From: Promethearchaeota archaeon
GTDB taxonomy: Archaea; Asgardarchaeota; Lokiarchaeia; Sigyniarchaeales; SOKP01
Direction of reading: 5' to 3'
Assembly (NCBI GenBank): GCA_019058245.1
Contig: JAHPZJ010000028.1
Span: forward strand, 64,001 to 128,000
Length of the DNA stretch: 64,000 bases
In this document: one piece after another, positions 9,603 to 16,896 of the stretch
Layout of the letters: each line of letters begins with the position of its first letter
Numbering within the stretch: position 1 is the stretch's first letter
Notes under the pieces: generated by a model
Told to the model about the DNA's origin: nothing
The model's database searches: none
What the model saw: only the letters and a program-made list of their open reading frames with translations
Translations under genes and position numbers: made by a program

Positions 9603-10178
9603 TTACATTTCAACTGGAACTCGCCATTCTATTCCGCAATCGCCGCAATGATACTTTTTTCCATATATACGAGGATAATCGCAAATTATATGAGATTTAT
9701 CAATTATTTCTCGGATAAGTGTCTTATTTCTATTTCCACATTTAGGACATTCTCTTCTTGAGTCTCCTTGGAGTACGTCTCCTTTGTGCATTTCAAGAGG
9801 GGCTACATTTTCAGAGAAAATTGATTCTGGAACATATCTTTCAATTTTTTGCTTAATTGGTTCGATTTCCTCTTTTAAAATAGGTTCTTCAATCAATCTT
9901 TCTGACTCAATTGTTTCCGCTTCTATTTTAGGGGGTGATATTTCTGTTATGGATGAAGGAGTTCCAATGACAGGTTTTGGAGTTTCTATAATTACTTCTT
10001 TTTGTTCTGCATAACCCTTATCTCTATCTTCTAATTCTGCAATTTTTTTTTTAAGTTCTTCATTCTCCTTAATCAATTCCTTGATTAGGTCTTCATATTC
10101 TTGTGGAGTGAAATCTTTATTATCTTCCATATCTTTACTCATTTTTTGATTGTATATGATATTTACATAAGTAAACAT
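9603..10178 (-). CDS. Coiled-coil plus C-terminal zinc-ribbon protein (start probably Met at 10142)
   Basis: Heptad stretch, acidic linker, CPKCG...CGDCG. Confidence 0.75.
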   Translation of the reverse strand: MFTYVNIIYNQKMSKDMEDNKDFTPQEYEDLIKELIKENEELKKKIAELEDRDKGYAEQKEVIIETPKPVIGTPSSITEISPPKIEAETIESERLIEEPILKEEIEPIKQKIERYVPESIFSENVAPLEMHKGDVLQGDSRRECPKCGNRNKTLIREIIDKSHIICDYPRIYGKKYHCGDCGIEWRVPVEM

Positions 10179-10295: not shown

Positions 10296-11177
10296 TTGAG
10301 AGTGAATATAATGCAACTATTCAATATTAACAATAAGGGAGAAATGATAGGGATAGATAGATTAGATTTTGATGCTAATGATGTATATCTTGTGGATGAT
10401 ATAGAAAAAAATACAATTTACATTTGGGTCGGAATGGAAGTAGAACAAAATAAAAAAGATATCACAGCAGATATCGCAAGAAAAATTGATAAAGAAAGAG
10501 GGGGATCAGCAAAAATCCTTATTATGAAACAAAAAAGAGAATATGGTTCCTTTTTAGCAATGATGAATGATTTAATAAAGGGGAATATACCTGGAAAAAC
10601 AATTGAAAGAAGACCTGAATTCGTATTTAAGGCACCTCCTAAAACTATTAAACCTAATAGGGCTGAGCAAACATCAGAAGAGAAAACGATTAATCTTGAA
10701 GAGAGAATAACAAAATGGCTACTACAAATTAAAGAACATAGAGTATTTGAACCAGACAAAAAAGAAAGTCTTGATGCTGTAAAATTCATCAAGTTTGAGG
10801 AGTCCCATGAAGAAATACAAACTGAGAGCAAAACAGAGGCAGAACAATTGTTAGAGCAAACGGAAAAACATAAAGAAATTGAACCCGAATTTGTTGAGGT
10901 AGAACTGGAAGAACCTGATTTAAAAACAGAAATAAAAGAAGCTGCATATTTTCTTTCCTTAGACAGATACTCCTATAACGATTTATGTTGGATGTTGGCT
11001 GAAAAAATTCAAAAAATGAATATTGTAATGCCTTCTATTGAAGATATAAAACGAAAGGCAGAAGAAGTCTTTAGTTCAAGTTGTACTTATGACGAACTAT
11101 GTTGGTTAAATGCTGAAATGGATATATTGATTAAGAAAAGCTTTATTGAAAAAGAGAAGAAGATGTTTAGATATTAA
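10296..11177 (+). CDS. Gelsolin-domain protein with C-terminal duplicated helical domain
   Basis: DVYLVDD...IYIWVG...A.KI..ER.G...Q..E..SFL gelsolin-repeat pattern; C-terminal repeat AAYFLS..Y.DLCW.LAE / KAEEVF..YDELCW.NAE. Confidence 0.75.
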   Translation: MRVNIMQLFNINNKGEMIGIDRLDFDANDVYLVDDIEKNTIYIWVGMEVEQNKKDITADIARKIDKERGGSAKILIMKQKREYGSFLAMMNDLIKGNIPGKTIERRPEFVFKAPPKTIKPNRAEQTSEEKTINLEERITKWLLQIKEHRVFEPDKKESLDAVKFIKFEESHEEIQTESKTEAEQLLEQTEKHKEIEPEFVEVELEEPDLKTEIKEAAYFLSLDRYSYNDLCWMLAEKIQKMNIVMPSIEDIKRKAEEVFSSSCTYDELCWLNAEMDILIKKSFIEKEKKMFRY

Positions 11178-11200: not shown

Positions 11201-11506
11201 TTATCCACAACAACTATTGTTTTGAGGATTTTTAGCAACAGAGCGAGCATTCCATAAGCAACCACAACCTTTTTGTTCTTGTAAAAAAATTGCCATTGTA
11301 GGACAATTTCTTTTACAAGCAGAGCACTCCGTGCAAAGTTCTGGATTATTAATTTCAAATTTCCCATCTTTATTTGGAGTTGGGAGTCCAAAAGGACAGA
11401 TTTCTCCACATATACCACAACCTGTACATAAATCAGGGTTGATTGAGATCTTTGGGATATTTAATGAAATTTTAACTGATTTTGATTTTAATGTTAATTT
11501 GATCAC
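11201..11506 (-). CDS. hgcB: HgcB-like 2[4Fe-4S] ferredoxin with Cys-rich tail (homologue, non-canonical)
   Basis: CTGCGICGEICP, CTECSACKRNCP (cf. HgcB CMECGAC..NCP), GCGC, terminal SCCG; directly downstream of an hgcA-like gene. Confidence 0.7.
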   Translation of the reverse strand: MIKLTLKSKSVKISLNIPKISINPDLCTGCGICGEICPFGLPTPNKDGKFEINNPELCTECSACKRNCPTMAIFLQEQKGCGCLWNARSVAKNPQNNSCCG

Positions 11507-11558
11507 CTTTTTTTTTCCTATTAATAATATTTGTTTATATTATTTATCTTAATTTGTT

Positions 11559-13247
11559 TTAAAATATTAGAGGGAAAATGATACTAATAGCTAGAGATAT
11601 TAAACTAATTATAAATAAAACCATATTGATTTTACTGAAAATTGGATATTCTTCTTGGATCTCCCGAGGGCTAGTTGCCATAGTATATCCACTGTACGAC
11701 ATTGTAGAGAAGAATGCTAACCAAAAGTAAAAGCAAGATTGCCATAATATTAAGAAGAATGAATTATGAATAAGCCAAGATATACTACTTAATAGAAAAA
11801 CATTTATAATACCATAAATCAAACCTTTAATAATAAATCTTCGAGTGAAATTGGTAATAGGGTATAAAAACATAATTGATGCATTAGTAATAATAACCCA
11901 AAGCCAAATTTCAGCAACAATCCACATTAACCTTATTTCTACAATATTTAATATGCTTAATCCTAATATAATTAAAATTAATGCAACACTTGGCCATAAG
12001 AAAATCTTTCGAAATAAAAATGTAGTATGCGTAATAGCTGCACGCAAACGATGAGAAGCTGTAAATCTTGCTAATCTCATTTTCTCTGGCTTTCGAGCAG
12101 GGCGTTCATTTAGAAATTTAGGAATATGTTTCGCCCATACAGGTCCAAATAAGATATTATATGGGAAATTTGACGCTTCACTTTTTATTAAGGGAGATGC
12201 AATTCCTCCAGCAGAAAGTTGAGGAAGTATTAATGTTTTCTTATTAGAAATATTAGTAATATCAGTTGCTTCTACTGCTTCAATCAATTGTTTATTTCCA
12301 AAATTATTTCCTCGAGCTGCACACCAAACATTTATCCCATTAGAATCAACACATAAAACCCAAGCGTTTATCCCTTTAAGAGCACGCATTAATTTAATAT
12401 ACGTATAACTATAATTAGCAGTTACTAAAATAGGTGAATCTCTGTCAGGAATCCCCGATTTATAAATACCTGGCTCTATTGGTACATGATCTACCTGTCC
12501 TGTAAAAATACAACGATAAATGTTCATTTGCGCCCGAAATCCTTTAAACTTTTTAAACTTAGGATGATAATAACCAGGTTCTTTTAAATTATTATTCTGA
12601 ATCTTTTTTAATTCAATAACTCGAATAGAACCATGATTCCATCTTTTTTCTGCCACTAATTTAAAACCAATAGGCTCTAAATAATTGAAAAACCATTTGA
12701 CTAAAAATGTATTAGGCAATCGGAGCCTACCTAATTTTTTTTTGTACTTCCAACGTTTAATGTTAAAAAAAATTCTCCAAAGCCCAGAGGGGACAAATTC
12801 AGCGGCAAGTATCATCCGACCATTCGGTTTTAAAGCCTTCCAAGCATTTCTTAGAAAAGTTTGTTGTTCAAATGGTCTAAGTTCTGAAAGCATAAATGTA
12901 CTTACAATCAAATCTTTAGAATTATCTTCAGCAGGTAAATCAGTAATTGATCCTATTTGGTATAAAAGTTTCGTTTTGGATTCAGAAGGAAAATTTTTCA
13001 TAGCCGTGTTAATCATTTGTAAGTTTTTATCAATAGCTAGAACTTCACTCCCCTTTAACGCCATTTTTTTAGCAAGAGCTCCTGTACCGCATCCTACTTC
13101 TAGGATAATTTGTGGTGCTTTAATTCGTTCTATTATCCAATTCTGAACTTCGATATTCGTACCTTTTGTAAGTTCAGTGAATTTTGATTCATAAGTCTCA
13201 GGCTCTAATTCCAATTTCCGCATGTAGACTACAGCTATTTTATTCAC
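11559..13247 (-). CDS. hgcA: Class I SAM methyltransferase fused to HgcA-like corrinoid domain and TM domain (homologue, non-canonical)
   Basis: ILEVGCGTG SAM motif; PGIY..G.P...SPILVTANY; GINVWCAARG cap helix; LILPQL; FGPV; TM helices ending FFSTMSYSGYT..TSP. Confidence 0.8.
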   Translation of the reverse strand: MNKIAVVYMRKLELEPETYESKFTELTKGTNIEVQNWIIERIKAPQIILEVGCGTGALAKKMALKGSEVLAIDKNLQMINTAMKNFPSESKTKLLYQIGSITDLPAEDNSKDLIVSTFMLSELRPFEQQTFLRNAWKALKPNGRMILAAEFVPSGLWRIFFNIKRWKYKKKLGRLRLPNTFLVKWFFNYLEPIGFKLVAEKRWNHGSIRVIELKKIQNNNLKEPGYYHPKFKKFKGFRAQMNIYRCIFTGQVDHVPIEPGIYKSGIPDRDSPILVTANYSYTYIKLMRALKGINAWVLCVDSNGINVWCAARGNNFGNKQLIEAVEATDITNISNKKTLILPQLSAGGIASPLIKSEASNFPYNILFGPVWAKHIPKFLNERPARKPEKMRLARFTASHRLRAAITHTTFLFRKIFLWPSVALILIILGLSILNIVEIRLMWIVAEIWLWVIITNASIMFLYPITNFTRRFIIKGLIYGIINVFLLSSISWLIHNSFFLILWQSCFYFWLAFFSTMSYSGYTMATSPREIQEEYPIFSKINMVLFIISLISLAISIIFPLIF

Positions 13248-13397
13248 ACCTATTTATCGTATTTTAGAAAATTCTTTTTAATTTTTATTCATAAAAAGTC
13301 ATATTAAATTTAATTTTTCAGTCGAATAAATCAAAAAAAAAATAAAAAACTTGAGATTAAATTTTTTAAATTTTGCTTTTGATAGAATTATATTAAT

Positions 13398-13481
13398 TTA
13401 ACAACACCCTTCTTTTGATTGGGATTCCTCTTCATCATTTTTAGGTTCTTCAGAACAACATTCTTTATCTTTATCTTCCAT
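13398..13481 (-). CDS. 27-aa acidic Cys-pair peptide MEDKDKECCSEEPKNDEEESQSKEGCC (not in ORF track)
   Basis: Hand translation; ATG with upstream GAGGT SD, TAA stop, own TATA and operator. Confidence 0.7.
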   Translation of the reverse strand: MEDKDKECCSEEPKNDEEESQSKEGCC

Positions 13482-13523
13482 AAGTAATTAAGACCTCGTT
13501 TATATTTAATTGTTAGATAATTG

Positions 13524-13543
13524 ATAGTTAGGAGCCTAACTAT
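13524..13543. promoter_or_regulatory. Perfect inverted repeat ATAGTTAGG-AG-CCTAACTAT, probable MarR operator overlapping a minus-strand TATA box (13541-13548)
   Basis: 9-bp perfect arms; related site ATAATTAGG-AA-CTTAACAAA at ~13562-13581. Confidence 0.7.
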
Positions 13544-13622
13544 ATAAATGTTTCGTTTCATATAATTAGGAACTTAACAAAATAATTTAATTTAAAATTT
13601 TAAAGGAGCGTAAGTTAAAGCG

Positions 13623-14087
13623 TTAACATTTTAGTGAGTTTAATAATTTCTGAAGTAATTCTCCTAACTTTTTCACCTCTTCTTCATTGATTTCTGGACA
13701 ACACCCATTAACGATTGATTCTAAGGGAGGAGTTTCATTTTTTAAGTTTTTGCCCTTTTCTGTAAGTTTAACAAGGAGACTTCTTCTATCCGAAGGATGT
13801 AATTTGCGAGTAACTATCTTCTTTTTTTCCATTGTATCTACTACTCCTGTAATTGTAGATCTTGAACATCCACATTTTTCTGCTAATTCTTTAAATTGTT
13901 GACCATCGGATTCCCATAGCTGACTTAATATAAAATGCTGTGCTGGAGTTAGTTCTAATTCTTGAATATTATTACGCTTTAATTTTTCGTATTTCTTATT
14001 TATGGTATTAATTAAAGAAAATACATTGACAATATGTTTAGGTTTACATGAATTTTCACATAATTCATGGTTTTTTTTTTCACTCAT
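13623..14087 (-). CDS. MarR-family regulator, Cys-rich
   Basis: LTPAQHFIL..LW, ELAEKCGCSRSTIT, DRRSLLVKLTEKG; extra Cys in CENSC and GCCP. Confidence 0.9.
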   Translation of the reverse strand: MSEKKNHELCENSCKPKHIVNVFSLINTINKKYEKLKRNNIQELELTPAQHFILSQLWESDGQQFKELAEKCGCSRSTITGVVDTMEKKKIVTRKLHPSDRRSLLVKLTEKGKNLKNETPPLESIVNGCCPEINEEEVKKLGELLQKLLNSLKC

Positions 14088-16314: not shown

Positions 16315-16896
16315 TTATTTACTCAACTTTTCTAGCAAAAAAGCAAAATTCTTGCCTAAATTTTCAAATGTTTCAATACCCTCTTCATCATCCAACACTT
16401 CTCCCGCTTGTCTTCCAATTCCTACATTCCAATAACTCGAACCAACAACAAACATCTGGTTTATAAGAAAGAAATAGTTTATACTTGAGAAAACATGATT
16501 TGCTCCAGCCCTCCTAACTGCTACAACTGCTGCTCCTACTTTGTGTTTTAATTTTCTTCCAGCAGCATATCCGCAACGTTCTATTAACGCTTTTGTGGTT
16601 GTTGTTAAATTAGAATAATATGTGGGAGAACCAATAATTATTCCATCAGAATTTAACATCTTTTCAATATACTTATTCATATTATCTCCAGGTAATACAC
16701 ACTTTTGATCATCATTATCTCTACATTTCATGCATGCCGTGCATCCTTGCATTTTTTCCATCCCAATCCAATTATAATCACATTCTATCCCAGCTGCTTT
16801 TAATTCATCCATAACGACATTTAAGCAATGATATGTATTTCCTTCTTTTCTGGGACTTCCATTAAATAATACCACTTTCATTATTATAGACCTCAA
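16315..16896 (-). CDS. Iron-sulfur flavoprotein / flavodoxin family (start probably MKVVLF)
   Basis: NGSPRKEGNT, CTACMKC....C, GSPTYY, GSSYWN. Confidence 0.9.
   Translation of the reverse strand: MRSIIMKVVLFNGSPRKEGNTYHCLNVVMDELKAAGIECDYNWIGMEKMQGCTACMKCRDNDDQKCVLPGDNMNKYIEKMLNSDGIIIGSPTYYSNLTTTTKALIERCGYAAGRKLKHKVGAAVVAVRRAGANHVFSSINYFFLINQMFVVGSSYWNVGIGRQAGEVLDDEEGIETFENLGKNFAFLLEKLSK

Follow-up and report, generated by a model that had tools for sequence, protein, structure and literature searches.

What would an archaeal cell methylate with an S-adenosylmethionine (SAM) methyltransferase that is fused to an HgcA-like corrinoid protein and followed by a ferredoxin gene? This question is raised by a locus in a 64,000-nucleotide stretch of Promethearchaeota archaeon (GenBank assembly GCA_019058245.1, contig JAHPZJ010000028.1, positions 64,001 to 128,000; hereafter the window, with a guanine plus cytosine content of ~28%). 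Open reading frame (ORF) analysis of the locus gave four co-oriented minus-strand genes encoding a MarR-family regulator, a 27-amino acid (aa) peptide, a 562-aa fusion protein, and a 101-aa ferredoxin. A sequence-only reading of this DNA had described these four genes and the methyltransferase, corrinoid, and transmembrane (TM) architecture of the fusion; all are present, as are the motifs it quoted: the fusion has NVWCAARG, and the ferredoxin has CTECSACKRNCP, GCGC, and, at its end, SCCG. We propose that the fusion and the ferredoxin constitute a self-contained three-module corrinoid methyl relay, paralogous to the CpaM plus HgcAB-like system, and we give this explanation as a whole a probability of roughly 0.55.

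Pfam searches matched the fusion to Methyltransf_25 (residues 48-143) and to CdhD (PF03599, residues 241-346). Among the NCBIfam families, CpaM (NF043040) was by far the best for the methyltransferase part, with 131.3 bits over residues 6-214 as against 49 bits for the next family. The remainder matched both HgcA (NF040863; residues 255-554, model positions 28-321 of 325, 168.9 bits) and HgcAB-like (NF043039; residues 255-518, profile positions 14-272, 177.1 bits). All three scores lie below the family cut-offs of 180, 275, and 285 bits, respectively. The fusion nonetheless combines the class I SAM-binding motifs of CpaM with its association with an HgcA-like corrinoid protein, and it carries the cap-helix cysteine of HgcA together with a predicted C-terminal five-helix membrane domain. 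Motif I of the methyltransferase reads LEVGCGTG. In an alignment of 37 sequences its GxGxG pattern and the acidic SAM-binding residues are invariant, and so are the N, V, W, C, and second A of the cap helix, whose AARG ending is constant across the family down to 35% identity; the earlier claim that the cobalt-ligand cysteine is kept within a variant cap helix is borne out by this alignment.

The AlphaFold2 model of the fusion, run on the same alignment, has a mean predicted local distance difference test score (pLDDT) of 90.1 and a predicted template modelling score (pTM) of 0.86. It shows a Rossmann and a corrinoid domain, with five C-terminal TM helices after them (residues 389-424, 430-457, 463-486, 489-512, and 519-553 in a 554-aa numbering). 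Its top structural match in the PDB library was the published HgcAB model 9a0b (E 1.3e-12), followed by class I methyltransferases. A sequence search for a solved HgcA structure found none and returned only generic methyltransferases and corrinoid iron-sulfur protein (CFeSP), the CFeSP structures 2h9a and 4c1n matching with E ~4e-7. By these comparisons the N-terminal part is a predicted SAM methyltransferase of the CpaM type whose SAM-binding motifs are intact, and the middle part is a predicted corrinoid domain of the HgcA/CFeSP type in which the cap-helix cysteine is retained, after which the model places a five-helix membrane anchor.

The separate ferredoxin matched HgcB (NF040864) over residues 16-95 with 53.5 bits, below the cut-off of 99. 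It possesses the features of that family, i.e. two CX2CX2CX3C motifs, an extra cysteine after the second motif, and a C-terminal CC; in the window family the extra cysteine takes the form of a GCGC pair. We aligned 25 ferredoxin rows spanning all fusion subfamilies (two loci are listed twice, leaving 23 distinct sequences) and found twelve conserved cysteine columns, 11 of which, including both GCGC cysteines, are filled in 25 of 25 rows. For the C-terminal pair, the second cysteine occurs in all 25 rows and the first in 24. By this alignment, the protein is a predicted 2x[4Fe-4S] ferredoxin whose thiol-rich tail is invariant. Fusion and ferredoxin genes stand side by side wherever the locus is complete in the 27 species genomes, even at a locus with 43% identity, and the arrangement is not due to chance.

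A second copy of the same three modules, differently joined, is present in the genome itself. On another contig (C11, locus L017:2983-4748, minus strand) a canonical CpaM gene (221 aa; 246 bits, cut-off 180) overlaps a gene for an HgcAB-like protein with a fused ferredoxin (367 aa; 376 bits, cut-off 285). The window proteins, all scoring below these family cut-offs, are related to this pair in the methyltransferase (30% identity, E 4e-17), the corrinoid domain (38%, E 6e-34), and the ferredoxin (38%, E 6e-9), and both systems lie on the same main side of the tree described below. In the pair the corrinoid protein carries the ferredoxin and leaves the methyltransferase free, whereas in the window it carries the methyltransferase and the ferredoxin has a gene of its own. 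The cap helix ends in AARG in the window and in GACG in the pair (NVWCGACG), and the GCGC and terminal CC of the window ferredoxin are both missing from the fused form, which has no cysteine tail. The window system thus appears, from these similarities, to be a paralogous re-partition of one module set, [MT-A]+[B] versus [MT]+[A-B] (MT, methyltransferase; A, corrinoid protein; B, ferredoxin). Because this set occurs in two fusion topologies, a Rosetta-stone argument can be made for a joint action of all three: SAM methyltransferase, corrinoid protein, and ferredoxin. The overlapping unfused genes lend backing to the suggestion of a methyltransferase working for the corrinoid domain, and NCBIfam already names NF043040 "corrinoid protein-associated methyltransferase". 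At a distance of 0.7-2 kb from the unfused genes, a TnpA/TnpB pair of the IS200/IS605 type is encoded (L017:746-2321).

A different role for the SAM domain would be repair only, on the model of methionine synthase: jointly with the ferredoxin, it would reductively re-methylate inactive Co(II), while the methyl group for turnover would come from elsewhere, e.g. a methyl-pterin. The combination of SAM and a reductant does match the textbook logic of MetH reactivation, and the ferredoxin is always adjacent. We nevertheless consider this rather improbable. No methyl-pterin:corrinoid methyltransferase is conserved beside the module, and the strict conservation and repeated fusion of methyltransferase and corrinoid protein suggest a stoichiometric role. 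Furthermore, in the assembled genome, which is 76% complete (a figure that bears on every absence reported here for it), PF03599 matched only the two HgcA-like proteins and neither CdhD/E nor CFeSP, so no CFeSP would be available to supply methyl groups.

To the extent that gene neighbourhoods indicate a substrate for the proposed relay, those of relatives point to arsenic. We clustered the neighbouring genes in a sample of 23 loci (20 further loci from 15 genera, plus the window, L017, and two loci of the first set) and found an arsR<>acr3-fusion-ferredoxin operon in 7 of them (L045, L046, L059-L062, and L039), two of which (L045 and L046) come from closed genomes of 4.32 and 6.04 Mb. These ars-type loci represent 5 of the 15 genera sampled, plus a record titled as a metagenome-assembled genome (MAG) of the actinobacterial Nanopelagicaceae. 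Their Acr3 scored 295 bits (cut-off 282.8) and their ArsR 74.7 bits against ArsR/SmtB (cut-off 55). In three more loci ArsR adjoins the fusion without acr3, and at L025 it stands in place of MarR. The arsR-acr3 context of the fusion is therefore recurrent, though not universal, and it supports the earlier suggestion that the substrate may be As or another thiophilic metal(loid). Canonical hgcAB has likewise been tied to ArsR and arsenic (bioRxiv 10.1101/2022.10.17.512643). ArsM shares with the window family the use of SAM and a place in ars operons; it transfers the methyl group directly, by means of conserved cysteines and without a corrinoid, whereas the window methyltransferase domain has a single cysteine, located in motif I, and lacks the As-binding cysteine set of ArsM (NF008823; 39 bits, cut-off 263). 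No ArsM above the cut-off was found in the assembled genome.

Several other features of these loci were recorded. In five ars-type loci (L062:10026-10806, L059, L060, L061, and L039) the ferredoxin gene is followed by genes for two small proteins that have no Pfam or NCBIfam match; one carries the motif LDACACEW, and its versions at L062 and L039 have in addition an N-terminal SCC...SCC stretch resembling the CC peptide of the window. Homologues of these small proteins occur near acr3 in the genome of the window (L068:3212-3890). There, acr3 is followed by two genes (contig C10, L068:5435-7256), one for a class I methyltransferase of 347 aa and the other for a 233-aa protein of no known kind; by its ArsM score of 18.8 bits, the methyltransferase is not an ArsM. 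In three ars-type loci (L062:5230-5976, L059, and L039) a DUF166 protein (PF02593), weakly matching the selenoprotein family DfsP, is encoded between arsR and acr3. The L039 contig (DATKTW010000069.1), deposited as a "Candidatus Nanopelagicaceae bacterium" MAG, bears an arsR-DUF166-acr3-fusion-ferredoxin operon of clearly Lokiarchaeial type and is probably mis-binned.

In contrast to the fusion-ferredoxin pair, the two upstream genes proved separable. The regulator matched MarR (PF01047) with 61.3 bits (cut-off 24.6), its best NCBIfam match is OhrR, and its five cysteines (an N-terminal C, CxC, and CC) are invariant in 15 of 15 orthologues. The 27-aa peptide, MEDKDKECCSEEPKNDEEESQSKEGCC, is encoded in 16 of 27 loci with lengths of 25-38 aa that vary in frame, its terminal CC pairs being invariant. 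Its start is preceded at 11 nt by a Shine-Dalgarno-like GAGGT (13493-13497). Nucleotide identity is 82% within the ORF versus 56% in the flank just downstream, and differences in the ORF are concentrated at third codon positions (267 versus 167 and 86 at the others), a pattern that marks the peptide gene as real. Upstream of it, a TTTATATA box (13541-13548, minus strand) directly adjoins the perfect palindrome GTTAGGAGCCTAAC (13527-13540), and a second copy with a 12/14 match lies 38 bp from this palindrome (13565-13578), so that the two sites bracket the box. We regard these palindromes, of the type GTTAGGNNCCTAAC, as candidate MarR operators. The proximal site is found 52-69 nt 5' of the peptide ATG in 14 of 14 MarR-bearing loci and the second one 77-107 nt 5' in 11 of the 14; a third copy often precedes marR. 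At the two loci that have the peptide but no detected MarR, both sites are absent; one of these loci encodes a CVC-containing ArsR in its place.

When the search was seeded with MarR, the regulator adjoined the fusion in ~17 genomes and lay away from the listed fusion match in 9 others, among which it was found beside an FMN_red flavoprotein gene (five genomes), beside both peptide and flavoprotein genes (two), or beside the peptide gene alone (one). As the cassette occurs with a flavin mononucleotide (FMN) reductase and without the fusion in these genomes, MarR and the peptide are accessory and not part of the enzyme core. The "four-gene module" of the sequence-only reading must be reduced accordingly, and the neighbourhood conservation it had called for holds for the fusion-ferredoxin pair in all complete loci, but not for the MarR-peptide cassette. 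The flavoprotein gene (FMN_red, iron-sulfur flavoprotein-like; L025:3378-4004, L026:3220-3819, and L072-L080) is ~80% identical across genomes, travels with the cassette whether or not the fusion is present, and at some loci is located between the peptide gene and the fusion. Its product could be the partner that feeds in electrons. A close orthologue was not found in the genome of the window, which is 76% complete; the FMN reductase encoded nearby at 16315-16896 is just 26-27% identical and was rejected as the counterpart.

The cassette also bears on another possibility, namely that the methyl acceptor is organic or a thiol (the CC peptide, a small thiol or sulfide, or a membrane compound) and that the module belongs to a redox/thiol-stress response. 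The cysteine-rich, OhrR-like character of the local regulator, the company of the FMN reductase in several genomes, and the conserved membrane domain would all fit. This seems improbable to us given that orthologues reside in arsR-acr3 operons, that ArsR substitutes for MarR, and that the ferredoxin tail, with its invariant vicinal cysteines, looks like known ligands of soft metals.

For the methyl relay that we prefer, the following scheme can be drawn. The methyltransferase domain would pass the SAM methyl group in cis to Co(I) of the Cys-ligated corrinoid; from the resulting methyl-Co(III) it would move on, in the form of a carbanion or radical equivalent, to a soft electrophile bound to the GCGC/CC thiols of the ferredoxin; and the ferredoxin would return the cobalt to Co(I). 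Transcription of the module may start at a promoter controlled by the Cys-rich MarR, or a short way downstream of it, and this promoter would also drive the 27-aa CC...CC peptide, possibly a thiol chaperone or buffer. The substrate class is most likely a thiophilic metal(loid), and because of the ars context, the exchange of ArsR for MarR, and the vicinal cysteines, an As(III)/Sb(III)-type metalloid is favored over Hg(II). More tentatively, and in our view less likely than not, the pair could constitute an ArsM-independent corrinoid route of As/Sb methylation in which a methyl group of inverted polarity is delivered via cobalt to thiol-bound As(III); such a route would reveal what the wider HgcA superfamily does natively, mercury methylation being a side reaction.

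Parts of this scheme have parallels. The corrinoid iron-sulfur protein (AcsC/CdhE) and its methyltransferase share a homologous corrinoid fold and the logic of methyl transfer from methyltransferase to cobalt to acceptor, but that system is soluble, lacks a Cys cap, and uses a methyl-pterin donor and the Ni site of acetyl-CoA synthase as acceptor. SAM methylates cob(I)alamin in methionine synthase reactivation and in class B radical-SAM methylases, whose SAM-binding folds and substrates are, however, unrelated to those of the window. Several considerations weigh against the relay or its proposed substrate. We know of no characterized precedent for a class I methyltransferase that moves the SAM methyl group to a protein-bound corrinoid. 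CobS was not found in the 76%-complete genome. The arsenic link is absent from the window and from the majority of distant loci, and in the genome itself arsR<>acr3 is located on a contig other than that of the fusion. Finally, since the MarR-peptide cassette occurs with an FMN reductase in genomes where it is not joined to the fusion, the local regulator may sense redox/thiol stress and not a metal.

The fusion family is widespread in Asgard archaea. Proteins nearly identical to those of the window bear Lokiarchaeial or Promethearchaeotal names, which, with the gelsolin-like gene beside the locus, fits an Asgard genome. We retrieved at least 541 homologues, of which the best 120 are all ~550-aa fusions with 61-84% identity, and at E <= 1e-30 the family was detected in 167 of 400 Asgard genomes and in 105 of the 134 belonging to the window's own family. 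Distant fusions (29-35% identity), some carrying the NCBI name "CpaM", were found in Hodarchaeales, Heimdallarchaeota, and one bacterial MAG. A tree of 114 representatives was split by a branch with 100% support in the Shimodaira-Hasegawa-like approximate likelihood ratio test (SH-aLRT). On one side are 94 mainly canonical (NVWCAAGK-type) HgcA proteins; the 20 rows on the other comprise every methyltransferase fusion, including that of the window, along with related rows that are truncated and 4 of the 5 fused-ferredoxin rows. The fusion hence falls in the HgcAB-like fusion clade and outside the canonical one, in agreement with the placement of Asgard sequences in the fused-HgcAB subtree by Lin et al. 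2023 (PMC10083202).

With canonical HgcA and HgcB, the window proteins have in common the corrinoid domain with its cap-helix cysteine, five TM helices, a separate ferredoxin with an extra cysteine after the clusters and a C-terminal CC, and a connection with ars genes, which for the window family lies in its relatives. They differ in their sub-cut-off scores, separate clade, and cap helix without GK, and canonical HgcA has no fused SAM methyltransferase. NVWCAARG is not among the accepted cap-helix motifs, N(V/I)WC(A/S)(A/G/S)GK (Capo et al. 2022, PMC10087281). As the cut-off, motif, and clade tests all failed, the fusion is, by sequence, not a canonical HgcA, and the label of an HgcA-type mercury methylase does not survive the profile and phylogeny comparison with curated HgcA that had been suggested for it. 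A genuine mercury methylase (HgcAB) carrying its own methyl donor is very improbable, for although the cap-helix cysteine, the TM helices, and the HgcB-like cysteine tail are kept and the nearest unfused relatives by raw phmmer score are NVWCAAGK HgcA proteins, these three tests speak against it and tested organisms with the sister "fused HgcAB" proteins make no methylmercury (PMC10087281, PMC10083202).

The coordinates of the locus are collected in Table 1. The fusion has two candidate starts, a GTG at 13247 (562 aa) and an ATG at 13223 (554 aa). Because the IAVVY residues 5' of the ATG recur in homologues of the 37-sequence alignment, distant ones included, the upstream GTG seems favored, but the matter is unsettled. 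A T-run after the peptide gene is a caveat on a single transcript for all four genes. A 57-aa ORF (13388-13561) overlapping the peptide gene in another frame has no family match and was rejected as a gene. Genes for a 193-aa membrane protein, a gelsolin-repeat protein (PF00626, E 3.9e-6; 10296-11177, plus strand), and a coiled-coil/zinc-ribbon protein (9603-10178, minus strand) were rejected as module members, being syntenic with it among close relatives only; the latter two are of Asgard cytoskeleton type and unrelated to the module. NCBIfam has no family for the 27-aa peptide, the small c4/c5 proteins, or the 193-aa membrane protein.

Table 1 Features of the fusion-ferredoxin locus, in positions of the window.
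Feature	Position	Strand	Basis
MarR-family regulator, 154 aa	13623..14087	-	PF01047 E 7.9e-17
Candidate MarR operators	13527..13578	.	Palindrome and imperfect copy around TTTATATA box
27-aa acidic peptide gene, N-terminal CC and C-terminal CC	13398..13481	-	Conserved ORF
Methyltransferase::HgcA-like fusion, 562 aa	11559..13247	-	Pfam/NCBIfam matches
CpaM-like class I SAM methyltransferase domain, ~residues 1-215	12603..13247	-	NF043040 131 bits
Cap helix NVWCAARG, presumed Co-ligand Cys C309 (562-aa numbering)	12309..12332	-	Alignment
Five-helix transmembrane domain (predicted)	11562..12059	-	AlphaFold2
HgcB-like 2x[4Fe-4S] ferredoxin (predicted), 101 aa, GCGC motif and C-terminal CC	11201..11506	-	NF040864 53.5 bits

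The CpaM/HgcAB-like kind of system is catalogued in NCBIfam but uncharacterized, and a full-text literature search, which was not exhaustive, found no paper on this fusion protein. New here are the partition of the modules, the distinct cap helix, the thiol-tailed ferredoxin, and the MarR-peptide control. The native function of the HgcA family and the source of its methyl group have been in question since 2013. A natural SAM methyltransferase::HgcA-like fusion names a concrete methyl donor, and the unfused form in the same genome strengthens the link. The fusion and the ferredoxin make up a compact two-gene system that is amenable to expression and assay, for which the recurrent arsR-acr3 context in relatives provides a specific substrate hypothesis. 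If arsenic is indeed the substrate, anaerobic sediments would hold a second, B12-based arsenic methylation pathway that surveys of arsM have overlooked. Metagenomic surveys of hgcA, for their part, should leave this abundant Asgard family out of counts of mercury methylators.

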